From Podarcis vaucheri (taxonomy: Eukaryota): a DNA stretch of 64,000 bases. A program made the position numbers and the translations under genes. The DNA lies in NCBI GenBank assembly GCA_965113315.1, contig OZ220373.1. One strand, written 5' to 3'. The notes under the pieces are model-generated. The model was not told the origin of the DNA, did not search any database, and saw only the letters and a program-made list of their open reading frames with translations. How positions within the stretch are numbered: position 1 is the first letter of the stretch; each line of letters begins with the position of its first letter. Positions 19,598 through 44,956 of the stretch are shown here, one piece after another.

Positions 19598-22156
19598 TTA
19601 CAGTGCCTTTATTCAACCCTATGTCTGCAACATTCCTTTTTTCCTTAGGACCATACTTGTTTGAGCTCCCTTTTCACTTTGTTTTCCCATGTCAAATAAC
19701 ATTTCCCAGACTACCCTGTGTGAGGTTATAATCCCAACCAAACTGCCAACTTTGGACTGTGTACTCTTCTATACCATCACACCAACTTAATGAATCAGAT
19801 CTATTCAAGTGTCCTATTTCTAATCGCCAAACTGTAGTTTAGCAACTGGGAACTCCTACAAACACACATGGTCCTCCTCCACCCTTGTGCATATATACTC
19901 CTTATTTCTCCACTTTCGAAGTTAGTGATAACTATGGTTTACCATGATGCGTACTGCAATTTTCTCTCAAACCAGAGTATGAATCCAGGATTTCACCTTC
20001 AGAATATCTCCTACTAACTGCAAAAGGAGAATTCCTTTCCAAAGCAGGAAGTACAGCAATTAGTCACAGGATATCACTGAAACCCAAATTAGGGTGTGGG
20101 TTTAGTTCCCAGAGAAAGACGAAGTTGTAGTAACAAATCTGGGGAATGATGATGACTCTACAGAGAAACAACAGCTCAGGCTATAACTCTGAAGCAGAGC
20201 CCAGCAGATGTAAAGATATCATTTTGTGAATATCCTGTCACCCAAAAGCACTGTTTAGCCCTCCCTCTTGCAGGCTTAAGCAAACCAGAAGGTCTTTTTA
20301 AAAATTCTGCCAAGTCTTTGTACTGATACTATTGCTGGACCCCTAGAGATTGTTTTGTCTGCTTTATGGTGTTTGTTCAATGGCTGCATTTTTATTGCTA
20401 TAGGGCTTGCCCTAAAAGGCAGAGTAAATAAAACAATGACAGTGCATGCCATTTCAACTATGTGCTTATTGGGGTAGGCAGCTTTGAAAACCTGTTCCCT
20501 CTCCCTTCATCCCCAACTGCTCCCTATCTGGGTCATGCCACAAAACTGTGGTTTTGCACAGGAAATTACATGCTGCTTACTTGTTGTCACACAACTTGGC
20601 TGTGATGGTGGCAAGCTTCCTACACGTGCATGTGCTTGGAACACATGAGCTAACAGTAACTACGTAAAGGCAGGCTGCACACAGAAATTCTGTAATGTGT
20701 GAAGTAGCCTTGAAAAGGGTTCAAGTTGTGAGGACTATCCCACAGAACTCTCACCAGTTGACGCTGGCATTCTGAACACCATATTCAATAGGGCTCCTTC
20801 CTGCTTCTGAACCTGTTGCTTCATTATGTTCTTTTAGAAAGTGAATTAAAAATTAAAGAAGTGTGATAATTGGCGAGACTAGTGAAATCAGACCCACACA
20901 AAAATCAGAATATATCAATGGCTTCTTGTTCACTTCAGATCTTGTCAGGAAAGCAGGCAAGAGAGAACTGTCCTCCCAATATATGGTCAACAGGAGAACT
21001 AGCAATGAACTTGTTTGCAGTGAGACTTCTGGAAATAAAATGAATTACTGGACTGAACATGCACTGAAAGGCACTTTGAGCCTTAATGTTAAAACTATGT
21101 TATGCCGCTCCCAGCCACTATTTCGCACTTAGCTCCAGTTGGTGCACCTCCAGGGTCTAGTCACAAAACCAAACAGCGCAAACAACAACCCTGAAGTACA
21201 TCTGCCCCTACCTCAAGATCTATTCTCACAGTTTGTAATGGACAATATGCTTTCTCTACCGCCACACCCTCCTGCTGCAACTTTGTGACCCACTTACCTA
21301 CGAGTAAGTCCCACTGACCTGAATAGGCCTTACTTATATGATTGTGTGCTTAGGAAAAGAAATAATTTGCTATGCAAAGAAAAAGGAACCATATACAGTA
21401 TATAGCCTCAGACAATTTTGCTTCAGATCCCAGGGGGGAGGCATGTTAGCTGCCTAAGTCACTGAATTCATTACAACTGGTTAACATATTTGCCTTTTAA
21501 ATAATATGAATGAGCAAGCTTAGAAAGTCAAATTAATTGTTATTTATTTCAGTGTTTTAACTTTTGCATGTTGTTATAAAATAATTCCCTGGGTTTTAGC
21601 GTCTTATCTTTCTTGTAAACTGCTTTGAAATTTTGTTTTTCAATCAAGCTGTGTATACATACCTTACGAAACAAATAAAACAATTACATGCCTACACATT
21701 TATTTGTATGCCTCCATCAAACTATGCTCAAGGCGGCTTAAAACGAATAAAATACATAGCTACAACGTAGCAAAAGTAGCCAGAAACAAAAAAGTATGTT
21801 GGGTTTTTTTTAAAATGCGAAACCGAACCGAGTAATTTCCTACAGGAATCGCAGGGAAACCTAAAATAAAGCTACAGAAAGCCAGCAGCAGCAGCAACCC
21901 CCCCCAAAAAAAATCCAAATAACATCCCATAAACAGGCACAACCTCGGAGCGATACAGCTCTGCGTTAAACTAAAACCTGAATGTGGTGATACAATTGGG
22001 ATAACGCCTTTCCCCTCCTCGGGGACCTTTGTGAGGGACCGAGCGGGGGAGGAGGATGAGGAGAGCCTCCTTTCCTTCAGAGAGGGAGTCGTACACGTGT
22101 GTGTGTCCGCTCGTGTGAACGCGCGAAGGGTCCCCGAAGGGGCCCTGCCTACTCAC

Positions 22157-22254
22157 CCCCTCATAGTGAACTTGGCCACGACTAGCCGGGAGCCGGCGGC
22201 GCTGAGCTCGCTCTGGAAGTCCGCGTCGTTGGCGATCACCTTCACCCCGACCAT
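22157..22254 (-). CDS. TXNL1: TXNL1 coding exon 1
   Basis: gccgccaggATGG start at 22254; MVGVKVIANDADFQSELSAAGSRLVVAKFTMRG; donor GG|gtgagt; 98 nt. Confidence 0.97.
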
Positions 22255-23030
22255 CCTGGCGGCGGCAGCAACACGCCCGGTAAGTGCAAAGTCACCGCGG
22301 GAAGAAAAGGAGCGCGGGCGGGGCGGGGCGAGAGGCTGGCCGGCCGCGCCCAGCATGCACCGCTCCCGCGCAGGCGCACACGGCCCCGGCCATCCCTTTC
22401 TTCCGCCTTCCTTCTCCTCCTCTCAGGCACCCTCGGCTGAGAGTTCATCCAGGTTCACGCGCCTAGGGAGAGGGGAGGGGTCAGCGGCTCACACTTCCGG
22501 TTGAAAGACTTAACCAACGGGCGAAAGCCGCCATTGGTCGCGATTCTCTGTTGGGCGCTCTAGGCGATGTCTCGATGCTGAACTCCACATCCACCCTTAA
22601 GGCTCCGCTCACAAATCCATGTTGGGCGCTCTAGGCTTCGACGACTCTATGGTGTAAACCTTCCCCTCTCTCTCCCCTCCCCCCTTACAAACGCACACGA
22701 CGCTGCTTCGTCTTTTGCACTGGGGATAACAAAAAGAGTTCGGGTTTGCGCCGGTAGTAGTGCTTGCGGCGGTGGGAGACTTTTGTTGTGGTTCCACCGC
22801 TATGGGTTTACCCGCTTGACTCCGCCGGCGACATCTTGGAGAAGGGCAAAGTGCGACCTCCGGCTTCGGGGAGGAGCGCTATTGGTTGGCAAGCCTTGTC
22901 GTTTCAGCTTGGTGACCTTTGCGGGCGGAAGTGATTGGCTTTTCAGGGCAGCCGTCATAGTTCAGGGCTCGCGGAAGTGGGGGAAGCATGGGCGGCTGCA
23001 TTGGTTCCGGTTCTGTGCATACCCGGCACC
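22255..23030 (-). promoter_or_regulatory. TXNL1 CpG-island promoter and 5' UTR
   Basis: CpG-rich. GC boxes about 22315-22330; TCT-like pyrimidine tract (minus, 22299-22312); ZNF143/Staf-type CCCAGCATGCACCGC 22349-22363; ETS motifs 22494, 22926, 22971; minus-strand CCAAT at 22533, 22881, 22934, 23000. Confidence 0.8.
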
Positions 23031-23034
23031 CTCC

Positions 23035-23317
23035 TGTTATGTCCTGAGCTGAATAGGATCCAAAATAAAGCAGTCTGATTGGTCCTAGAACAATGCAGCA
23101 GTATGATTGGTCCGCAGGAGCCACCCAATCCAGCTCCAGGTGGAAGTGAATCCACAACCTGATTGGCCTACAGGAGAATCCTGGAATTAGCCAATCACGT
23201 GCGGCCCATTGTGTAAATAATGTATATAATGCAGATATTTTGGGGGAACATTCATTTCTTGCTACTATGAGCTGAATAAAGAGCATGAAATCCACACTTG
23301 ACTCCGAGTATATTTCA
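23035..23317 (+). mobile_element. Solo LTR (283 bp)
   Basis: TG...CA termini; perfect 5-bp TSD CCTCC (23030-23034, 23318-23322); five CCAAT/ATTGG boxes, CACGTG 23196, TATATAA 23223, AATAAA 23275. Confidence 0.88.
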
Positions 23318-23856
23318 CCTCCCATCCCAAAAATTATGAACTAGAATCGTATAATTTGCAGAGTTGGAAGGGTAATCCAGTCCAACTGCCTACAGCGTAG
23401 GGATAGGCTGCTGGCCAAATCGGGGGTTTTATGGATCTAACTGATTCACTAGCATAGCCTTGCAGAGTTGTGTGTTGTTGTGCGACATTTTTTTTGTTTT
23501 TAAATCTTTGCTTCTTGAGGTCATCCAAAGTAAATGCACATAGGGTTGCAATGACACCAAGGTCCCACTGAAATCTATGGGCCAAGGCAGTTGTAATTGA
23601 CTTAAGCGCCATTCATTCCAGTGAGCCACCCACTCCTGCCGAACATTTGTGGGGTTAGGAGTGCGACCACCTCAAAAACTTCTGCAGACAGTAGAGAAAG
23701 TGTGACCTCCCTATAGCATCACGAACACAAATCATTATGAACGCAAAATAAAGTGGAACACCTGGAGAGGCCACAAACCTATGCATCACTTAGATGTCCT
23801 ACTGAACTTGAACAGAGCTGATTACCACTTAACTGCAGTCCTGTATTTCAGGTCTT

Positions 23857-23890
<34 letters not shown>

Positions 23891-24011
23891 TACCAAGTTA
23901 GGAATCCTCTCAAAATACATGTATTTGAAAGGATGTGTGAAATGTCCTGTATTTAAGGTCTGGGTAGCCAAGCACAGACATGTGGTGTCTGCATGCATGT
24001 GTGTGTCTGTG

Positions 24012-24162
24012 CATGGGCATAGCCGGGGGGGGGGGGGCAGGTAGCTGCAGCTCTTCCCCCCAAACAATAATAATAAAAAATACATAGCAAACGGAGGTTC
24101 TGCCCTCCCCCCCCCAACAAAAGGACTGCCCCTTCCTAACAAAAATCCTGGCTATGCCCACG
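24012..24162. mobile_element. GC-rich hAT-type MITE
   Basis: TIR CATGGGCATAGCC.../...GGCTATGCCCACG; degenerate 8-bp TSD (6/8). Confidence 0.65.
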
Positions 24163-24624
24163 TGTGTGAGAGAGGAATTCCACAGGGGCTGTCCTGTTAA
24201 TCTGCAATAGATTGTAATGAATTGCTTTGAAGTCACTTCAGCAGCAGATGAAAAAAAAAGCGCAACACGATGACTATGTACATACGCAATAGACAATCTT
24301 TATAGAATTCCTTCAAACCATAACAGGTACAAAATGAAATCTTTAGTCTCAAAGTCTCTGAAGCAAGGTACCAGACTTTATACGATGAAAGATAAGCTGT
24401 GAAGCTTTGTGTATTCAGCAAATATGTCCAACACTGAAGAGTGATTCCGGATATTGACTACTGTTTCGTAGAATTCTTCGTCAACGTGGTGGGAGGATAT
24501 AGAATTGCTTCATAAACCCATCTTATTTCGAATGAATGTATGTAAATGAAAATATCAAACGCTGTGGAACAGTGCTCATGTAATAATGTAGTCACTGCAG
24601 TACATTTGGCACAAGCAGAGACCA

Positions 24625-24685
24625 ATTCTTAGGGGGCTGGACTAGAGGACCCTCAGGGTCCCTTTCCAGCTCTCCAATTCTATGA
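24625..24685 (+). mobile_element. CR1 3' terminal fragment
   Basis: GGGGGCTGGACTAGAGGACCCTCAGGGTCCCTTTCCAGCTCTCCAATTCTATGA. Confidence 0.6.
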
Positions 24686-24829
24686 CTGGGGTGGGGTGGG
24701 GGAGGTTATTGTTTTTGTTAGTTTTGCAAATGGGGGGAAAAGGCGACAGATACATTTAATAAAAAATGATGATGATAAGGCTGCAACACTTCGCAGGTTT
24801 ACCTGGGCAGGAGGAAGAATAAAGCCCCC

Positions 24830-25249
24830 GACTGAGCGCCTTTTGCAACAAAACTAGCACACCTCCTGCCTGATTTGCACGCATTTCCCCCCATGCATCC
24901 CTCCTGCTGCTTTAAACCCCGCACCCTCTGCACTCCCCGCGCAGCGCCAGGCGAGGGCCGCAGGGAAGCGCGCCGGGGGCCGGGTCGCTGCTCCGTCTCC
25001 CGGGCAACGAGGCCTCCCCCTCCCTCCCTTCCTTCTGCCGCCAAGCGCCGCCCGGGCCTTTTGCGACACTTGCAGCGGGAGTCGCGGCAGCTGGAGGAGC
25101 CCGTCAGCTGATTTCCAGCGCCAGGCGTTGAGGCAGAGAGAGGGAGAGATAGAAGGAGGGCGAGGGGCGGCAGGCGAGCCCGGAGGAAGGTGGGGGGCAA
25201 GCGGGGAGCCCCTTCTGCCGGCGGAGAGGCGGCCCCCGCCCACACCCAG
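24830..25249 (+). promoter_or_regulatory. WDR7: WDR7 CpG-island promoter and probable non-coding exon 1
   Basis: CpG island with no ATG in 25000-25249, ending at strong donor CAG|gtaggt (25249/25250). The start codon lies in the next exon. TSS cannot be determined from sequence. Confidence 0.7.
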
Positions 25250-28200
25250 GTAGGTGCTTCCCTGGGGCGGGGGGCGCAGCAGGACTCTCCCCAGACTCCC
25301 CTTGTCCTCCCCCACTGCTGAGTAATTTTGCTTTTTTGCTGCCTTCCTTCGCAGGTCGACCGAAGCGTCCTTCCTTCCTTAGGGTCTTCTCACCCTCCCT
25401 CTTTATTTTTATTTTTTTTAGTGCTGCTTTCTATTAGTATTGCCTTTGGGTCCTTTCCCCCACCCCACTCTAAGAAGCTCGCGTTGTGTGTGTGGGTTGG
25501 TCCTTTTGGTTTTCAGGACTCAGAGGCAACATCCTCCTATCTTTTCTTAGTTCCCTCTTTTTCAATAAAAAGAAGTAACAGAGGGGCACCCTCTCAACCA
25601 GGCGTCCCTTCTTGCCAACCTCGGCTCCCCCCCCCCCAAACCCACGAGAGGATGCTTGGCAGGCAATGCCCCTCTTGTCAAATCCACCCCACTCACCCAT
25701 TTTGTGCTTATAGCCCCCTTCCTCTCTAGTGTCGCCTATTCTGCCCCTCGTATATTTTTTTGTTTTTGATTGTTATATATCTAAGTGGGATTGCCAGTTG
25801 CTCGGCCTGAGGGGCTTCTAGGCTAGGAAGGGAAATGTCATTTTAAGAATAAATAGAAAAGTCACCAAAAGTCACAGTGTAAGGGGCTGATAAGCTTTTA
25901 GCGGGGGGCCCAGCTCCTTCGTATTCCTGAAACCACTCAAAAAGTGGTCTAAAGTGTGCCATTCCTGCTTTGGCCATTGATGATGGCTGGATTTGCTGTG
26001 GTACACTTTTTGCCCTCTCCTTCAGCAGGAAGGTGCCACCCATATTCCCTCTGTGCCAAGTGCACTGCTGCCCTTCCCTTGACATTGGGGGGCAAGAGTG
26101 CCCCTTTCATAACCTCCAACACATCTTCAGATCCTTCCTTTTAACAATCAACTGCTTTCTGCTTGCTTCTGCCCCCCACCTTGCCTATAATGGCAACTGA
26201 CACCTGTTGCCCAGTCTCCTTTGAGACTGATTTTGCCAGGCCTGTCCTCAGCCCTGGAGTGGAAACTCCTTTATTCTAGCGCCTTAGAATGGCACCGCAT
26301 TGTTTTCTCGTACCATGTGTTGGTGAAAGTGAGGAAGAGCGGGTGACTGCGGAGTACCACAAACAAAACAAACACCTATTATAGAGTTCAACCAGAGTCA
26401 CTGTTATGCCTAGAATACTTCCGGGAAGATACCTCTTCTTTAATGGCTCCTCACAAAACCCTTCTCTCTGGTGGACTGTGACTTGTGACTTGCATCTCCA
26501 CAGCAGGATCTTTTGTTTGTAAATGCTACCTTGGCTCTTTGGTGCCCTGTTGCCCTTGTGGTTTGAAATCCCTTATTCAGAGATGATGGCCACTGAACAT
26601 TTGCTTGGCATGGTCTGGCAGGCTTAGTTGGCCGAGTTTCCACTGCAAGATGAGCAGTGAGTTACTTCATTCTTACTGGTACAAGAAAAAAGCATCTATT
26701 TTCTGTGGGTGATGCAGTTGGGTGGCTGAACTTTCTTGAACTTTCTAGGGCACTGATAGGGTGGCAGACTTTATCAGTACTTTCCAGCTGTTTCTTTTCC
26801 CTGCAAACAATGTGACTCTTACCTCTAGAAAATTGTTGGTTATTTGAAATTTCCCTCACTCCCCAAAGATCAGCTTAAGTGAGTGATAAATAATAAACAA
26901 TTGATACACTTAGAAACTTGTTTTTTGGTAGTTACCTGTCACCTTAAACTTGGCATTCTGGCATTCCCTTTCTCCTTGTTCAAGTGGGTCTGTAGCAGAG
27001 TTTCAACCTACATTGTTACTGAAACCTTTAATCTTATGATTTGAGACCATCATAATGCATTGTAACTTGTTTCTTTACATATTAGCTGTTGATCTCATTA
27101 TGAGACAGACAAATGGGGTGTCTGGAAGAGAGGTATGCAAGGAGCTTGTATGAAAAAGGATAAAATATCAGGGTAAATTACTCTGTGTATGGCTTGAGAG
27201 AGCACAAACATTAGAAATTCAGCAGTTTTATGTTGAAGGTATGTGAGATGCTGTGAAGATGACAGCTTTGTTATTCAGGTGATATAGGAGGAAATCCCAG
27301 GTAGCAGGAAAGTCCTGACAAGACGAAGGTAGGATGGCTCAGGAGGGGATTTAGCAAAGTTTTACAGAAATTGCAAGAGGGACAGAGAGGCATAATGCAT
27401 GCTTCTGGCATTTATGAATAGCTGTTTCATCCATGTCTTCTGTTCTATGGCCTAGCTGCTAGGTGTGTGTAGCCACTATCTACTTCCAAACAGGAGGTGC
27501 ACTTGCACCCCTCAGTAGATTTGTGCAGATCAGTTAGGGATAGTTACCACACCTGTCTGCTGATAAAATAATTAAACTGATGTGTGGGGAGGACCAATTT
27601 GTATTGCTATTAGGGTGCTGGGCTGCTTCCACAGTTCTGTGCCTACTTAATTTCCCCCCTGTTTGCTTCTGCTGTCAAATCAGTGGCTTCTTTAGGAGTG
27701 GGGATATTTGTTTGGGAGGCAGGGATGAGGTCTCTGAACTGAGCTGCGCACCCCTAGTTTAGCAGCTTCTTATTCTCTCCCTATCAAGCCAGCTGGAATT
27801 GGCAAGAAGCAAAATGTGCTGAGAAACTAGCTTGAGTTAATTAACACAAGTGCATTGGAAGAACCTTTTGTTCTATGGCTACTGAATAGTGTGTGATTTA
27901 AATTGTTGCTGTGTAACATCTGAGCATTTTAATCTAAATACAAGTTCATATTTCATACCGCTGAGTTTTGAATTGGTTCAGGTGTTAGTATATAACCTTT
28001 CTGCTATCATGACTGTTACTTAAGTATAGTAAACGCATGGTATAAACATTCAGTTGGTCAATTAGCTAATTTATTTATTATATTTTCAACATCTGTAAGA
28101 TCGCTGTCATTAATACAGGCAGACAATATACATCAAAAGTCGCACTAAGCATAGTGGGGCTTACATCTGTGTAAACATACATAGAATTGCTCTGTAGGTC

Positions 28201-32354: not shown

Positions 32355-33618
32355 TAATTTAACTTGCATCCAAGGTTTCAACTGTGTGCCTTTCTAATGA
32401 AAACAAAGGGAGGCATTTTAATGTTTATTATAAGTTGTATAACTTGCAAAGATCTAAGTTCTTGCATGTTTGGAAAGTATTAAATCCTTCGCAATTTAGT
32501 TTTTCAATTGTTTGAAAAAGATTAAGTTTGCAACTATTGGAAGCCTGAGATACTGCAGGCGGATGAGCCTGCTAGAAGGAAGGCATATGAATGCACAAAT
32601 GAGTTAATGTTTGTGTTTATTGGCACATTATCAGAGTTCTTTCCCTCAGCTGTGTTGAGGGATTACCCTTATAAGTAGTGGCATAGCTAATTTTCCAGGT
32701 CAGTTCAATCTTTGGCCCTCCTGCGGATAATGATAGCCTGATTACTGATCGTTGATGTGGATTGGTCTCCATGGCAACTAGGTCTGAAACTGCCTCCTTA
32801 ATTTCCTAAAAGCCCTCAAACAACCAGGCTCAGAATAGTGATTTGGATTTTTATTTGCAGCACTTTGTCAAAACCAAATAATGTTCAAATCCATTAAATA
32901 CAAGTGCATTGAGTATTATTGCTGTGTGGGCCTTCCGTTTGGCCCTTGTTTTCTCAGCTCCCCCAGCAGAAGTTCCTAACAAATACAGCAAAAAAATAAA
33001 ATAAAATATTTTTTGTCAACATGCATTTCTTCCCAGATAATCTTCTGGTACTTAAAAATTACCAGAGGACTCAACCATTTCCCTCCTAACCTTTTTTGAA
33101 TATAAAGGGCACAGTGGACACAACAATGATCTTCAATAGCGATATAAATGAAGCTGAATGTTTCTGAATCCTCGTGTTACCACCAGAATGGAGCACAATT
33201 GCTGCAAAACCGGCTCTAATCATTTGTCTCCACACCAGCTCATTTGGGCATTGCAGGATTCCAAGCTTAATTCTACAGCTATTGATTTTTCAATACAGTT
33301 TTCTCTCTCTCTTTCTCTCTTTCCATACTTTAATACAAGCCTTTACCTGTAGGAAAATATAAGCAATACTGAGATTTCCTCTCAAATATAAAGCTATAAT
33401 CTTGGATATTATTTATTGTGATGATGGTATTATTGTGTATTTATCCTAATTTCCAAGGATATGACTAGTTGTAGTAGATAACACCATGTGATAAGTGCCC
33501 ATGGAGCTGTGTTGTATGGGGCTTATGTACCAGATTAATTTTACTGTCCTGAATGCCATTTGCACTCTTGTTCTAAAACTTTTATCCCTTGCTTTATGTG
33601 TGTACTTATGGTTCATCA

Positions 33619-33968
33619 AGGGACACGGGTGGCGCTGTGGGTTAAACCACAGAGCCTAGGACTTGCCGATCAGAAGGTCGGCGGTTTGAATCCCCGTGAC
33701 GGGGTGAGCTCCCGTTGCTCGGTCCCTGCTCCTGCCAACCTAGCAGTTCGAAAACATGTCAAAGTGCAAGTAGATAAATAGGTACCACTCTGGCGGGAAG
33801 GTAAACGGCGCTTCCGTGCGCTGCTCTGGTTTGCCAGAAGCGGCTTAGTCATGCTGGCCACATGACCCGGAAGCTATATGCTGGCTCACTTGGCCAGTAA
33901 AGCGAGATGAGCGCCGCAACCCCAGAGTCGGCCACGACTGGACCTAATGGTCAGGGGTCCCTTTACCT
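33619..33968 (+). mobile_element. Full-length Sauria SINE
   Basis: GGGACACGGGTGGCGCTGTGG head, B-box-like GGTTTGAATCC, CCTTTACCTTT tail; 13-bp TSD TTATGGTTCATCA. Confidence 0.95.
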
Positions 33969-34490
33969 TTATGGTTCATCAGTTGAGGTTGATGTGCAGA
34001 TGAGTCCCCTTCCAGCCCCCAAAATACCTTGGCTTGACTCTTGAGGTGCAATGCAGTGGGTGTTCAGATCCTAAAACCTTTATTTGTTGGCTCGTTGGTA
34101 TTAAGGTTGCTATGTGATATACAGTACAGTCCATTAGGATAAACTGCGCTGAACCTTGCATCACGCTTCAAAATGCAGTTTTGAGTCATGGCTTGAGCAC
34201 ACAGGTGTATAATTTAGTCTTCTCTAATCACCACCTAGTGCTTGTTTGCTTTAAACAATTATCACTTAAACAGATTAATAATGAATAAAACTTTAACATT
34301 TATTTTGCCCCCTTGTATGCTGTCAAATTACAGTTTATCTAAGTAGCTTTCAGTGTATTCAGACCTGGTTTTTGCCCTTAATTTCAGCTCATTTAAAAAA
34401 GTGTCAGTTTTGCTCTTCATTCCCTTCCTTTCAACCTTTTGGTATCTAAACTTTCCCATTGGCAGTTACATAGGCCATATGTCACCAGGC

Positions 34491-34704: not shown

Positions 34705-35489
34705 CAGTGGTACCTCTAGTTGTGGACACGATCCGTTCTGGGGTGCCGTTCACACCCTGAAAAGTCCGCAACTACAAGTGAAACCCGGAAAATTAGAATA
34801 TCGTGGAAAAGTTCATTTATTTCAGTAATTCAACTTAAAAGGTGAAACTAATAGATGAGATAGACTCATGACATGCAAAGTGAGATATGTCAAGCCTTTA
34901 TTTGTTATAATTGTGATGTTCATGGCGTACAGCTGATGAAAACCCCAAATTAACAACCTCAGAAAATAGAATATTAAATGAAATCAGCAAAACAAGGGCT
35001 GCAAATAGAGCAATATTGGACCTCTGAGAAGTAGAAGCATGCATATGTACTCAGTACTTGGTTTGGGCCCCTTTTGCATCAATTACTGCCTCAATGCCGC
35101 GTGGCATGGATGCTATCAGCCTATGGCACTAGTGAGGTGTTATGGAAAACTAGGAAGCTGAGTACATGTGCATATATGCAAATAAAGGCTTGACATATCT
35201 CGCTTTGCATGTCATGAGTCTATCTCATATATTAGTTTCGCCTTTTAAGTTGAATTACTGTAATAAATTAACGTTTCCACGATATTCTAATTTTCCAAGT
35301 TTCATCTGTAGAGCAGCGGTTCTGCACAAGCACGGAGCACGATAGAGCACTTTTACGCATGTGCAAAGCATGCAGAATGCTTCTGCGCATGCGTGTGTGG
35401 CGAAACCCGGAAATATACACTTTTCGGGTTGCTGCGTTTGCAACCCGAAAATCCGCAACATGAAGCAAACACAACTAGAGGTATGACTG
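34705..35489. mobile_element. pogo/Tigger-like MITE hosting a nested Tc1 element
   Basis: TA-CAGTGGTACCTCTAGTTG ... CAACTAGAGGTATGACTG-TA. Confidence 0.85.
34775..35308 (-). mobile_element. Internally deleted Tc1 transposon
   Basis: About 130-bp TIRs (GAAAATTAGAATATCGTGGAAA...), TA TSD; minus strand 35051-35146 reads SITPH*CHRLIASMPRGIEAVIDAKGAQTKY*, the Tc1 transposase C-terminus. Confidence 0.92.
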
Positions 35490-35726: not shown

Positions 35727-36102
35727 AAAAGGTAAAGTACCCCTGGACGGTTAAGTCCAGTCAAAGGCGACTATGGGGTTGCGGCGCTCATCTCGCTTTC
35801 AGGCCAAGGGAGCCGGCGTTTGTCCACAGACAGCTTTCCGGGTCATGTGGCCAGCAGGACTAAACCACTTCTGGCGCAACAAGACACCGTGACAGAAACC
35901 AGAGCACAAGGAAACACCATTTACCTTCCCGCTGCAGCGGTACCTATTTATCTACTTGCACTGTTGTGCTTTGAAACTGCTAGGTTGGCAGGAGCTGGAA
36001 CAGAGCAACGGGAGCTAACTCTGTTGCGGGGATTCGAACCGCCGAACTTCCGATTGGCAAGCCCAAGAGGCTCAGTGGTTTGCACCACAGCGCCACCCGT
36101 GT
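35727..36102 (-). mobile_element. Sauria SINE
   Basis: AAAGGTAAAGTACCCCTGG tail; conserved core GGTACCTATTTATCTACTTGCA; head CACAGCGCCACCCGTG. Confidence 0.92.
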
Positions 36103-36236: not shown

Positions 36237-37146
36237 TAATAATAATAATAATAATAATTTATTATTTATACCCCGCCCATCTGGCTGGGTCTCCCCAGCC
36301 ACTCTGGGCGGCTTCCACAGAAACCAAAAAACACTAAAATATCATACATTAAAAGCTTCCCTGAATAGGGCCGCCTTAAGATGTTTTCTGAATGTCAGGT
36401 AGTTTTCCATCACCTTGACATCCGATGGGAGGGCATTCCACAGGGCGGGCGCCACCACCGAAAAGGCCCTCTGCCTGGTTCCCTGTAGCTTCGCTTCTCG
36501 CAATGAGGGAACCGCCAGAAGGCCCTCGGCGCTGGACCTCAGTGTCCGGGCAGAACGATGGGGGTGGAGACGCTCCTTCAGGTATACTGGGCCGAAGTCG
36601 TTTAGGGCTTTAAAGGTCAACACCAACACTTTGAATTGTGCTCGGAAACGTACTGGGAGCCAATGTAGGTCTTTCAAGACCGGTGTTATGTGGTCTCGGC
36701 GGCCGCCCCCAGTCACCAGTCTAGCTGCCGCATTCTGGATTAGTTGTAGTTTCCGAGTCACCTTCAAAGGTAGCCCCACGTAGAGCGCATTGCAGTAGTC
36801 CAAGCGGGAGATAACTAGAGCATGCACCACTCTGGCCAGACAGTCAGCGGGCAAGTAGGGTCTCAGCCTGCGTACCAGGTGGAGTTGGTAGACAGCTGCC
36901 CTGGATACAGAATTGACCTGTGCCTCCATGGACAGCTGTGAGTCCAAAATGACTCCCAGGCTACGCACCTGGTCCTTCAGGGGCACAGTTACCCCATTCA
37001 GGACCAGGGAGTCCTCCACACCAGCCCGCCCCCTGTCCCCCAAAAACAGTACTTCTGTCTTGTCAGGATTCAACTTCAATCCATTAGCCGCCATCCATCC
37101 TCCAACCGCCTCCAGGCACTCACACAGGACCTTCACCGCCTTCACT
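36237..37146 (-). mobile_element. 5'-truncated L2-clade LINE (ORF2 C-terminus, 3' UTR, (TTA)n tail)
   Basis: ORF 36342-37145: WMAANGLKLNPDKTE...SRLDYCNALY...QNAAARLV...HITPVLKDLHWLPV...LWNALP. Confidence 0.95.
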
Positions 37147-37493
37147 TGAAATCTCAGAGGTTGGACTCTCTAGGGCCAGTTGAAGCTTCTACTTACTTGA
37201 ATGGTGTTCCCAGGTGTACCCTTTCCCCCTCTTCCCATATAAAGTGAATAGCTGCCATTCATTCACTTGAGGGTGACATTTCCCTGATATCTCAAGCCCT
37301 GCTGAAGGTATTCACATTGGAGTGCTGTGTCTCTTTAGCACAGAGAAATGTTGCTCACTCCCCCTAATCCTGGCAATCTGCAAGAATGATAGGCATTGTA
37401 TTAGTTATATATATAATATATATATAGGAACTTTTATAGGAACTCAAACACCAGATTCTGCTCTGTTCCAGTAACAAGAAGCTGAAAGCACCA

Positions 37494-37531
37494 GCCTGAA
37501 GATGACGAGTGAGACCTCGTCGAAACGTCGC
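37494..37531 (+). ncRNA. Minimal type I hammerhead ribozyme motif, copy 1
   Basis: CTGAAGA-T-GACGAG[TGAGAC]CTCGTC-GAAA-CG-TC; 6-bp stem II; palindromic ACGT in place of stem III; stem I only 2 bp. Confidence 0.7.
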
Positions 37532-37582
37532 CCAGACACCCCGACTCTTACACGGGAAGACACCCGAAGACACCAAAACCTG

Positions 37583-37584
<2 letters not shown>

Positions 37585-37614
<30 letters not shown>
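37585..37614. repeat. (AT)15 microsatellite at the centre of the inverted repeat
   Basis: Visible run between the inverted pLTR arms. Confidence 0.95.
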
Positions 37615-37617
<3 letters not shown>

Positions 37618-37666
37618 GGTTTTGGTGTCTTCGGGTGTCTTCCCGTGTAAGAGTCGGGGTGTCTGT

Positions 37667-37704
37667 GCGACGTTTCGACGAGGTCTCACTCGTCATCTTC
37701 AGGC
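37667..37704 (-). ncRNA. Minimal type I hammerhead ribozyme motif, copy 2
   Basis: Reverse complement of the copy 1 core; core identical. Confidence 0.7.
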
Positions 37705-37876
37705 TGGTGCTTTCGGCTTCTTGTTACTGGAACAGAAGTTTCTCGTAGGTTCTTGTCAGCTGGAAGGTTTCCTCCCCGTAGAGGTGAGATATTTGCTTTC
37801 GTAGATTTTCACGGGTACAGGAATGCAGGTTTTGGTGTCTTCGGGTGTCTTCCCGTGTAAGAGTCGGGGTGTCTGG

Positions 37877-37914
37877 GCGACGTTTCGACGAGGTCTCACT
37901 CGTCATCTTCAGGC
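37877..37914 (-). ncRNA. Minimal type I hammerhead ribozyme motif, copy 3
   Basis: Identical core, exactly 210 nt from copy 2. Confidence 0.7.
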
Positions 37915-38225
37915 TGGTGCTTTCGGCTTCTTGTTACTGGAACAGAGCAGAATCTGGTGTTTGAGTTTCTATAAATACTGTTGAGGGGTGTGGTGTATAG
38001 CCTCCAACGTTCTGGGCAAAGAGGAAGTTCCTAGATTAGTGTGCCTTTTCTTCTTTTGTTCCTTAATTACTTGAGGGATATCTTGAGTGATTTCATGTGT
38101 GATATTCTGAATAGCACTGGGTGGGTCATTAAGTGTAGATTAGTTGCTAAAGCTTTCGTGTCTTGACCTCTTGACCTCAGAAAAACTCTTCACAAGCTCA
38201 AGCCTGAAGATGACGAGTGAGACCA

Positions 38226-38226
38226 C

Positions 38227-38272
<46 letters not shown>
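38226..38272. repeat. (AT)n(GT)n microsatellite
   Basis: Visible run abutting the truncated fourth hammerhead copy (38204-38224). Confidence 0.9.
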
Positions 38273-38274
<2 letters not shown>

Positions 38275-39128
38275 GCCAGCTGAACAAAAAGCTTTTCACT
38301 TGCAGGGGCTTGATGTGGACAGAAATGTGTTTATATGACACTGATAGTAATTAGACATTGGTGAGAGGTCAAGGGGCAAGACCCACATAGCATTTCCAGG
38401 AAAAAGGGATGTTCTTAGTTACCTGGTTTGCTTATAATAAACAATAATTTTCTTTCCTCTTTGTTGTATAACCATTAACCTTCCTTTATCAAAATTTTCC
38501 TTAAAACCATTTCCCCCCGCCCTGCTTTAGGGAGAGACAAATTGCCCTCATTCAAGAAGTAAGCAACCTATCGACTCGTTTTGGCGTAGTGCTCACAGTT
38601 GTAGTTCCTGTTGTCATATTTAGTGAGAGAATTAAGTAAGGGAGTGCACACTGATTGTGTAAATGAGAAACAAAGCATAGGAAATTCTCATTTGGAAGTA
38701 AACTCTTTGTGCTTTAAGTCCAGGAGAGTTAGTATCTTTTAGGTGGCATTGTTCTGCTAATTGAAATTAATTGAGCTAACTTAGTCATGTTTATTAATTT
38801 CAGTGGGTCTTCTCTTAAGTTGAACCTAGTTGTACACACTTTCGTTTAGAGTGATCATGACTGTGTTATTTTGTGTCTGTGGAAATTTACAGAGATAACT
38901 ATAAATAGAAACAATGAAAAGACTAATTTGCTGCTGAAAAAAGCTTGGAAGGCTTAAAGCTTTTTACAGACTCATTGGGAGTTGGATTGAGTTTTCTTTC
39001 AGCAGAACAGAGTGTTGGGGCCTTCTGAAGGTCTGAGAAAGTGATTTCTTAATGATATATTTTCAGGTTCTCCAGGCGGAGGGTTGGGGATCAGCACCAG
39101 TCCTGCAGAAAATATGTGCTTCAGAGTA

Positions 39129-39381
39129 CAGTGGTGCCCCGCAAGACGAATGTCTCGCAAGACGAAAAATTCGCTAGACGAAAGGGTTTTCCGTTTTTGT
39201 GTTGCTTTGCTAGACGAATTTCCCTATGGGCTTGCTTCGCAAGACGAAAACGTCTTGCGCTTTTTTTTTAAAGCCACTTGAAGAGGCGCAGTTGCGACGG
39301 ACCGTGCTTCGCAAGACGAAAAACATCGCAAGACGAAAAGACTCGCGGAACGAATTGTTTTCGTCTTGCAAGGCACCACTG
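39129..39381. mobile_element. pogo/Tigger-like MITE
   Basis: TA-CAGTGGTGCCCCGCAAGACGAA ... TTCGTCTTGCAAGGCACCACTG-TA; repeated GCAAGACGAA motifs. Confidence 0.9.
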
Positions 39382-40953
39382 TATAGTTATTCATAGCCCG
39401 AAAGCTTCAGGACAGTTTGTTAGCAGATTAATATGTTTGTGACTGTACTTTTCCATCATTGATGTGAAAATATTGATTTTTTTTCACTGAGATATATTTG
39501 GTATTCTAAATGTACTGTTAAAGAAGCCTGCACTGTTCCAACCGACCAGCCCTATCCTCTGTCAAAATGAGCCTGTACTTCTTGAAAATGAAGATAGTAC
39601 TAAAAGCGTTCAGATCCCGCGCTAAAAAAACAAAAGGAAACAGGTAGTTGTAGAAACAACATTCCTTCTTGGACTAGATTTAATATTTCCTTTCTGAAAG
39701 CTTGGTGTTGGTTGGTTTTTATGTAGATGTTTATAGCAGCTTATTGGTCCTGTTCATTATGGTATTCCATAATTTTGGGGAATTTTGTGCAATTCTATGC
39801 CGAAATGTGTCTGATAACTTCCATGTATCCTGAATTCTACATGGACAGATATAATGAAGTTTGCAATGCTGTATGAATGAAGGAAGAGTGATATTAAATT
39901 CATTACCTTAAATGTGTTTTGGGAAAGTCGCAGAAGGGCAGTATTTTAATTTTTTTGAAAGCTGAATATATTGATGTTTGCCTCTTGTTTTAAAGAAGTA
40001 ATCTGTTTTTGATGAATATTTATTGTAATTTTATTAGGCAGAAATAAATAAATAAATTGAGGAAATGTGTGCCTTTTTCAGTTGTACTCAGTGCTGCAGT
40101 AGTGCATAGATATCTTGAGCACCTAAAATAGGGTGCTATGAAATTAGAAATAAGTTCTGTTCTGTGCAGGTCTAGTACCTTAAGCGTATGGCGTTTTATT
40201 CTGTACAAATAATACCTGCAGATCATCATTCTGGGACCATTGCCCACTTACGGTATAATACTCTACATATCTCCTCAGATTTGAGTCCTATGTAAGTGAA
40301 TATACTGTATAATTGCAGCCTTGAAGCCGATTCTTGTTTTGTGCGTTTTGCCCTGCTCTCTGTCCAGATTGTGTGGTTCTTTGTATGTGATTGGTTTAAA
40401 CATGTTTTATGCCAAAGGGAAGATGTGTAGTTTAGATAACAGAGGCTGATGTAAACAGAAACTGTTCAGAGGACTGAAATAAATTGGCAAGCTTTGAATA
40501 AGCTATATTCAAAATTTATTGACTTTAAACACTATCAGAGCAGTTGCAGCACAGCACATGAAAGACACACAAAACTTTTTGTATTGGAGAAGGAAGAAAA
40601 CATGGCCATTTTGAAGCAGAAAATAATTTTGGTAGTCCAGCTAGTCCACCAACTTAAGTAACAAAAATTCCCTTCAGCATGCTGTTGGATATTTGTCTTC
40701 CGGCTCAAGACATTTGCAGGTCTTGTCTGAATTACTTCACTGAGAGGCTGAGGTATTGCAGTGTGCTTTGGTGCGATTAACAAACCCTGTTCTTGCAAAT
40801 TTTAGTCCAGCTGCCAATAACACTAACAAATAAATGGCTTCAGGTGACCAGAAATCTTGGAAGGTGGTTTAGCATGATAAATTTTGGGAGTCTGATTTGT
40901 ATGTTGGGTCAGGGCGTGTGAGGGTTAGGAAAAGGACCTAGATTGTCAAAGGG

Positions 40954-43749: not shown

Positions 43750-44588
43750 TAACTGTGCACTATACGATGTCTTTCACAATGCCTAGGTTTGTTTAAATGT
43801 AATTAATGCCCTGTTTTGCAGAAACACAATTTAAACACATTTCTGAACATTTATAATCAGATTTGAGTGTGTGTCTGGTAACCTACAGATAAGGCATAGT
43901 TACGGTATGCATGCTTCTTCCAAAGCGAAACCTTGTTGCTTGAGCTGATGCATAACAATCAATATATATTATTGATATTCATAGGGTTGCTTTTGTAGGA
44001 GAGAGTGTTGATTTTTTTTATCATTAGCATGGAAAATCAATGAATTCTGCTGGAAAGCGGCTCTGTTGGGTTCTCCCTTCCCCCTGACCTTTTGGAGGTC
44101 AGCCTGCTAAATCAATTTAACATGAATAACTAATGCAGACGCTGAACCTGGGAATGCATTGTCTCTTGTAAACAATTCTGTTTGTAAAACTGCACTCCTT
44201 ATCCGCTTGTGTTTTTTTTGGTTTGTGGTATAGTTAGGTGGTGGTGGTATTTGCAGTAAGCCTTTAAAGATTGTGGAGGCTTGAATGCCAAATAAATAAA
44301 CTAGAAGCTGAAGTTCACCTCTTCTGTATGCCACGCCATGTTCTTTGTTCTCTTTATGAGGGTGAGCTTTCAAAGCTAATTGCATGTCTATTGCACATAC
44401 ATAGAAAATGACAAGAAGCAATGGAACTTTTAGTTGTTTGAATGATTATTGGTAGCTTAAACAAGCAATCTGCTCTGTGAAGTTCCAGTAACTTTTAAAA
44501 TAAAACATTTTTCTACCAATCGTAGCCTTATGATGTTAGATTAGAAACGCACATAGCAGCTGATTTGGCCAAGGTAACACCGCTTGCA

Positions 44589-44956
44589 AGGGACGCGGGT
44601 GGCGCTGTGGGCTAAAGCCTCAACGCCTAGGGCTTGCCGATCGAAAGGTCGGCGGTTCGAATCCCCGCGGCGGGGTGCGCTCCCGCTGCTCGGTCCCAGC
44701 GCCTGCCCACCTAGCAGTTCGAAAGCACCCCCGGGGGCAAGTAGATAAATAGGTACCGCTTACCAGCGGGAAGGTAAACGGCGTTCCGTGTGCGGCTCTG
44801 GCTCGCCAGAGCAGCGTTGTCACGCTGGCCACGTGACCCGGAAGTGTCCCCGGACAGCGCTGGCCCCTGGCCAATAAATGTGAGATGGGCGCACAAACCC
44901 CAGAATCTGTCAAGACTGGCCCGTTCGGGCAGGGGTACCTTTACCTTTACCTTTTT
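44589..44956 (+). mobile_element. Full-length young Sauria SINE
   Basis: Intact CpGs, B box GGTTCGAATCC, (ACCTTT)n tail; perfect 14-bp TSD TAACACCGCTTGCA. Confidence 0.95.

Follow-up and report, generated by a model that had tools for sequence, protein, structure and literature searches.

A likely truncated Penelope/Poseidon-type element with two hammerhead motifs 210 nt apart in Podarcis vaucheri

Among the described systems closest to the locus studied here is PAc (Poseidon_Ac), a Penelope-like element (PLE) from Anolis carolinensis. It has been reported that PAc has two internal reverse-transcription starts, the outer one at +111-118, with a 30-40-nt tail between them (Frangieh et al. 2024, PMC11167929). 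In this element the ATG is located at stem II of the hammerhead ribozyme, AT-rich DNA is cut on both strands, and RNA up to +172 is required; in vitro, the hammerhead is dispensable for insertion, and the ribozyme cuts when the protein is added (PMC11167929). PLE insertions are described as comprising partial tandems, truncated copies in inverted orientation and tails, and as targeting microsatellites (PMC8557442, PMC3846280), and dual PLE hammerheads on opposite strands, 100-700 bp apart, are also known (Cervera and de la Pena 2014, PMC4209133). A second group of relevant systems is formed by the retrozymes; according to Cervera and de la Pena (2020, PMC7229834), their circles are stably self-paired. 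In a 2026 preprint, retrozymes were defined by at least two consecutive TRF units, each with a complete hammerhead, and it was claimed that animal retrozymes derive from the pLTRs of PLEs (Li, Clavereau and Pollet 2026, 10.64898/2026.07.22.740005). The same preprint reports retrozymes in four out of five reptiles, the consensus averaging 176 bp, and cleavage in one of nine Xenopus dimers. The link from PLE to retrozyme is thus not new, since it has already been published there as a general claim.

The window, i.e., the whole stretch of 64,000 nt of Podarcis vaucheri DNA that was analysed, contains an insertion of approx. 800 bp (37433-38224) located in a TA microsatellite, between TA tracts. 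The original prediction for this DNA was that two copies of the element bound a retrozyme monomer of 210 nt, with an ordinary PLE insertion as the fallback; it is the fallback that is favoured here. The insertion and its flanks are composed as follows, with signed numbers giving positions relative to the ORF:

37405-37432, no strand: left flank, rich in (TA)n; includes a short duplicate of the first part of copy 1
37433-37584, plus strand: copy 1, a 5'-truncated element end (-69 to +83), inverted relative to copies 2 and 3; hammerhead core at 37496-37529
37585-37613, no strand: (TA)n tract, on which copies 1 and 2 both terminate at the +83 site
37614-37736, minus strand: copy 2 (-40 to +83); at the base homologous to 37876 it has the allele that is commonest in sequencing runs X1 and X3
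37824-38174, minus strand: copy 3 (-268 to +83), with the end of the RT/endonuclease ORF, the 3' region and the pLTR; it continues into the spacer
38121-38174, minus strand: match to the C-terminal end of the RT + GIY-YIG protein P0020 (17/18 residues)
38175-38202, plus strand: fold-back, 28 nt of element sequence normally found upstream of 38174, inverted in place; loose ends at 38174 occur in runs X1, X3 and X6
38203-38224, plus strand: inverted hammerhead piece of 22 nt (-7 to +15), identical to copy 3
38227-38272, no strand: right (TA)n(TG)n flank

The 5' truncation, the partial tandem and the inverted copies expected of PLEs are therefore all found in this insertion. Copies 1 and 2 face each other across one TA tract, and the pieces are mutually 98-99% alike. 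Retrozymes have target-site duplications of more than 4 bp, when present; because both flanks of this insertion are TA tracts, no such duplication can be defined. Copies 1 and 2 (37462-37736) are also nearly perfect inverted repeats of each other over 123 bp, with (TA)n in the middle, and a read-through transcript of this region would form long double-stranded RNA. Two candidate histories of the insertion were considered and rejected: a local slippage duplication of copy 3, and an insertion of copy 3 into the pLTR of copy 2, for which the upstream half of the pLTR was not found beyond 38224.

Protein comparisons gave matches for both ends of the ORF. The 60-codon frame present in the insertion matches P0001 with 77% over 57 aa, and the N-terminus of the element shows 61% to the rattlesnake protein P0002 and 64% over 25 aa to the anole protein P0016. 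P0002 led in turn to 395 longer proteins, and nearly all of the best 120 of these 395 have an RT domain. The opposite end of the ORF is the one that matches P0020, a protein from Podarcis muralis in which RVT_1 was detected at 4e-16 and GIY-YIG at 1e-3, the latter below the cutoff; Pfam contained no family for the 56-aa N-terminus nor for P0001. Given that these matches are found at both ORF ends, copy 3 comprises the end of the ORF, the pLTR, and the start of the ORF up to +170. An ORF with RT and C-terminal GIY-YIG, as is characteristic of PLEs, is thus represented here by the matches of its two ends to P0020 on one side and to P0001, P0002 and P0016 on the other. Other PLE features were also found, namely a pLTR with a minimal hammerhead and the ATG at stem II, and two 3' ends 30-40 nt apart at AT-rich targets (37823 and 37789, then TA). 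From these matches it is likely that the locus is a truncated copy of a Penelope/Poseidon-type PLE, in which only the two ORF ends are present and the clade is assigned by similarity; the Penelope-like origin that had been predicted agrees with the matches of the ORF ends and with the pLTR hammerhead. A literature search joining Penelope, hammerhead and Podarcis found no paper.

A repeat search of the window revealed a direct repeat of 124 nt (37613-37736 and 37823-37946) with its starts 210 nt apart and 99% identity, and a third, inverted copy at 37433-37584. Over the common 123 nt, the three copies are one or two letters apart; between copies 2 and 3, 122 of the 123 core positions are equal and the sole mismatch is position 71, three bases past the predicted cut. 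These results confirmed that minus-strand copies 3 and 2 are direct repeats exactly 210 nt apart, and, judging by length and identity, a chance origin of the repeat is excluded. The features of the repeated region are the following:

37669-37702, minus strand: core of the minimal type I hammerhead in copy 2, recognized by motif; predicted cut after 37669
37669-37878, minus strand: 210-nt cut-to-cut unit, ORF +29 to +170 joined to -40 to +28
37724-37906, minus strand: 60-codon frame, with 57 codons of the element N-terminus, then 3 codons and the stop from copy 2
37736-37737, minus strand: junction of GAGAAACT with TCTGTTCC, where ORF +170 passes to -40; the join has no common letters (blunt)
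37737-37823, minus strand: 87-nt spacer, ORF +84 to +170; 37789-37823 forms the 'tail' of 30-40 nt that separates the two 3' ends of the family
37879-37912, minus strand: core of the minimal type I hammerhead in copy 3, containing the ATG (37906-37904); predicted cut after 37879 (+28)
37969-37977, minus strand: TATA-like TATTTATAG, first T at 37977, outside the 210-nt unit; putative promoter

Copies 2 and 3 each have a full minimal hammerhead core, CUGAAGA-U-stem II (6 bp)-GAAACGUC, together with the ACGU palindrome, in agreement with the dimer-type hammerheads that had been proposed (37912-37879 and 37702-37669), and the same core is present in copy 1, i.e., in all three copies. Helix I has 2 bp in these hammerheads. 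On the minus strand, the predicted cut-to-cut interval (37878-37669) is 210 nt. None of 4227 Rfam families matched the window at the gathering score, and for this reason the hammerhead is identified by motif and not by a curated model; sub-threshold matches to hairpin and miRNA models were rejected as reflections of the inverted repeat. Dimer-cutting PLE hammerheads are reportedly the subject of Lunse et al. 2017. In the original prediction the unit was divided into 123 nt of pLTR and 87 nt of ORF N-terminus; these lengths are correct, but the ORF does not start in the 87-nt part. Since ATG 37906 is inside the hammerhead, the 123-nt part already contains ORF +1 to +83, and the spacer only +84 to +170. 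The TATA-like motif expected near 37977 is present, but the pLTR transcript that was called antisense corresponds to the element's own sense strand. Likewise, the 60-codon ORF (37906-37724) that a circle was expected to regenerate is a real frame, but one that the linear DNA already has.

The family to which this copy belongs was followed in four DNA runs (X1, X3, X4 and X6, with three organism labels) assembled in contigs of approx. 60 nt, using 37690-38226 as reference. Matching contigs were found in all four runs (5534, 1398, 3227 and 564), with deep cover at 37789-38175, and the family is very abundant. Among the best 23 of 220 rows of break-point ends, 3' ends followed by TA occur at 37789 (+118) in the four runs (42, 18, 64 and 15 contigs) and at 37823 (+83/84) in three of them (23, 9 and 8 contigs; X4 is not among these rows). 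At base 37876, the letter of copy 2 accounts for 70% of the depth in X1 (72 contigs), 58% in X3, 4% in X4 and none in X6. Copies 2 and 3 thus differ at a polymorphic site of the family; the odds that an independent mutation gave this letter are near 1 in 370, and two template variants are therefore likely.

Joints between distant parts of the element are also frequent in these runs. Among the best 12 of 19 joints, nine are go-back joins from a truncated pLTR to an ORF-side end (periods 105-191), a count that omits 10 long-skip joints ('between: not known') and three joint rows in the 3' region. The break points of these nine are all different: six end at the two main 3' sites with TA-type letters between, and the other three at +156, +176 and +182, although joints are visible only within approx. 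40 letters of the point where the ORF of the reference stops, which bears on the apparent clustering near +170. Contigs of approx. 60 nt leave the joints silent on whether the upstream copy carries a hammerhead, and the reference includes the 37736/37737 junction, hence this junction lies outside the joint listing. None of the break points listed coincides with the hammerhead cut (37878). One X3 joint, of another type, shares its -40 end with copy 2, and further ends are found at -43 and -47, all of them 24-31 nt below the TATA-like box. The corresponding stretch, 37946-37953, contains several family 5' break points, and by this spacing it is a possible transcription start.

Two joints stand out by their depth. 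In X4 (organism C), a joint from 37913 to 37737, with six letters between, unites ORF +176 with the start of the hammerhead with a period of 183; its depth is 782, versus 66 and 118 for other joints of this run. It is possibly an amplified mini-element or a tandem array, bearing in mind that single-contig depth is a weak measure and that the tandem state is not visible in a contig. In X1 and X3, a joint from 38153 to 38041, with eight letters between, goes back approx. 120 nt within the 3' region of the element; its break points are equal in two organisms, with depths of 2186 and 861, and it likely represents a subfamily with an internal duplication.

The contigs also bear on whether the arrangement could be an assembly artefact of a palindromic, repetitive stretch. 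Inverted arms of 123-152 bp around a TA tract would suit this explanation, and no contig listed bridges the junction or the whole stretch; nevertheless, contigs of approx. 60 nt cannot span the repeats, the three copies can be told apart by their letters, two of these letters occur in other runs as natural variants, and joins of a similar type are common in the reads. An artefact is accordingly considered extremely improbable.

If the 210-nt unit were a retrozyme monomer, it would be cut by a dimer hammerhead, circularised, and copied elsewhere by the PLE protein. The geometry could in principle release an RNA of 210 nt, as had been anticipated, since there are two complete cores in one orientation and 210 nt from cut to cut. 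The released RNA would contain both start sites and the ORF to +170, near the minimal template of PAc (+20 to +172), its size is near the 176-bp mean of the reptile retrozyme families, and a TATA-like box lies upstream of the unit, albeit outside it. However, the repeat has only 1.59 units, with two complete cores, where at least two consecutive TRF units with complete hammerheads would be expected; TRF at the published settings reported two repeats, neither of them with a period of 210 (TA and TG tracts only). Upstream of the repeat, copy 3 extends for 228 nt as native element and the junction is not repeated there, which indicates that it was not copied from a 210-nt circle, given that a circle would repeat the junction and cannot template this native sequence. 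Moreover, copies 2 and 3 carry different family alleles. On these three grounds (1.59 units, junction unrepeated upstream, differing alleles), a rolling-circle origin of the unit was rejected.

Fold predictions gave no support to this reading either. Instead of the stable self-paired circle described for retrozymes, the circular form has a minimum free energy of -35.2 kcal/mol versus -34.2 +/- 4.3 for 200 shuffles (z -0.24; linear form, z 0.05), in a comparison that was run without a known retrozyme as control. Relative to the ensemble, the constrained dimer fold is less favourable by approx. 15 kcal/mol, a gap that grows to 84 when the transcript reads 30 nt into copy 1; these energies have no positive control and exclude tertiary contacts and the protein help needed by the PAc ribozyme; such read-through is predicted to pair one ribozyme copy with the inverted copy 1 in a long duplex. 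Retrozymes usually, although not universally, have a canonical type I hammerhead with a 6-bp helix I and a loop 1-loop 2 contact, and the cores found here are minimal. From the models, the two hammerheads are predicted to cut poorly at this locus. Since the PAc hammerhead cuts once the protein is added, poor folding alone is not fatal to the retrozyme reading; on the other hand, eight of the nine Xenopus dimers remained uncut in vitro in the preprint (10.64898/2026.07.22.740005), and the RNA-seq reported for PAc was without ends at the cut site (PMC11167929). Taken together, a retrozyme monomer is very unlikely, and nothing at the locus points to the spread of the 210-nt unit.

We propose instead, with a probability of about 60%, that the 210-nt spacing is a one-off partial tandem in a young 5'-truncated insertion, produced by a template jump of the reverse transcriptase. 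The element protein would have introduced nicks in both strands of the TA tract, and the two opposing copies 1 and 2 would stem from cDNAs primed there at +83. The cDNA of copy 2 would have been extended to -40, near the likely transcription start and 31 nt below the TATA-like box, where the enzyme may have left its first RNA template at the 5' end and continued on another RNA from +170. This second template would have been copied for 438 nt, finishing with the two short inverted pieces, and the 210-nt spacing of the hammerheads would arise as a by-product. The end of copy 2 at -40, shared with the X3 joint and close to those at -43 and -47, is as expected for a cDNA reaching the 5' end of a transcript, and the join of +170 to -40 is blunt. 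It has been shown that the R2 reverse transcriptase jumps between separate templates, a result obtained for R2 and not for a PLE (PMC8857657); a literature search for template jumping together with pLTR found no paper.

Two observations weigh against the template jump: +170 is not among the two main start sites of the family, and a deletion from a pLTR-ORF-pLTR copy yields an identical sequence. In this alternative, the insertion would first have been a canonical partial tandem, made up of a truncated copy, the full ORF and a pLTR ending at +83, and would have lost +171 to -41, during reverse transcription or in later repair, again as a one-off locus. The layout before the deletion is the textbook partial tandem of PLEs (PMC8557442), many Penelope copies are disabled by deletions (PMC3846280), and the two pLTRs of one source locus can differ in their alleles. 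By eye, 2-4 common letters are present at two related joints of X1 and X4, whereas the join at the locus has none. The recurrence of the -40 end in a joint of another type also speaks against a deletion, and pieces that are 98-99% alike leave little time for a second event. We therefore regard the deletion as possible but rather unlikely. Either way, by template jump or by deletion, the spacing would be a by-product.

A broader proposal is that lizard Poseidon elements repeatedly shed units that run from the hammerhead to ORF +156 to +182 (periods 177, 183, 191, and 210 here), and that reptile retrozymes originate from such seeds, the X4 183-period joint having already multiplied and this locus being the step before amplification. 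Each such unit includes the two reverse-transcription starts together with the stretch that binds the protein. Although we consider this proposal unlikely, if true it would move the link from PLE to retrozyme from a tree-based inference to a mapped molecular event. If such units are multi-copy, they would reveal the cis-signals passed on from the parent element to a retrozyme; the 2020 and 2026 papers propose this step without mapping it, as far as their available text indicates (PMC7229834, 10.64898/2026.07.22.740005); the X4 183-period joint, if multi-copy, would be a better retrozyme seed than the 210-nt locus.

Regarding the surroundings, G and T are in excess on the plus strand at 26-64 kb and this is reversed at 1-21 kb, with two blocks of CpG-rich DNA at 21.5-25.5 kb across which the skews reverse; the region 21500-25500 is likely a bidirectional promoter. 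The base skews suggest a host transcript on the plus strand, in which only copy 1 would be sense, followed by its complement; splice-signal counts (6 vs 7) do not resolve the host strand. A frame of 275 codons on the minus strand (36342-37169), with a weak RT match (E 0.026), corresponds to the 3' part of a LINE, which we take to be L2/CR1-like, and ends approx. 260 bp from the Penelope insertion. An interspersed repeat of 350 bp is present in three copies (33617-33971, 35728-36102 and 44587-44949) and presumably resembles the Sauria SINE. MITE-like inverted-repeat pairs were found at 34772-35311 (133 nt) and 39127-39383 (24 nt).

In summary, the locus appears to be a new copy, complex in structure, of an element type already known, and the retrozyme reading is not supported there. 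It is one of many scrambled insertions of an abundant family, of use for documenting how enzymes of the Penelope type initiate, terminate and change templates. With the metazoan non-LTR retrozymes, as described, it shares a unit size in range, a type I hammerhead, pLTR sequence and the need of a PLE protein to move; it differs from them in having less than two units, a minimal instead of a canonical hammerhead, no predicted self-paired circle and no sign of amplification at the locus itself, with the unit still embedded in native element. With the minimal metazoan PLE hammerheads it shares an extra base between A9 and G10.1, a long helix II, the lack of loop 3 and palindromic 15.2-16.2 (PMC4209133). 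In these hammerheads helix I usually has 4-5 bp (2 bp in D. virilis), compared with 2 bp at the locus, and same-strand pairs are described approx. 3 kb apart, compared with 210 nt (PMC4209133). Regarding PAc, the element belongs to another family (64% over 25 aa to P0016, an Anolis match that may not be PAc itself), its helix I has only 2 bp, and in the copy studied here a third end, at +170, is fused directly to a truncated pLTR. In other respects it resembles what is described for PAc: the ATG is at the start of stem II of the hammerhead, the cut site is at +28 versus +26, the two internal 3' ends are approx. 35 nt apart with the outer one at +118 versus 111-118, the targets are AT-rich, both strands are used, and the protein is related.
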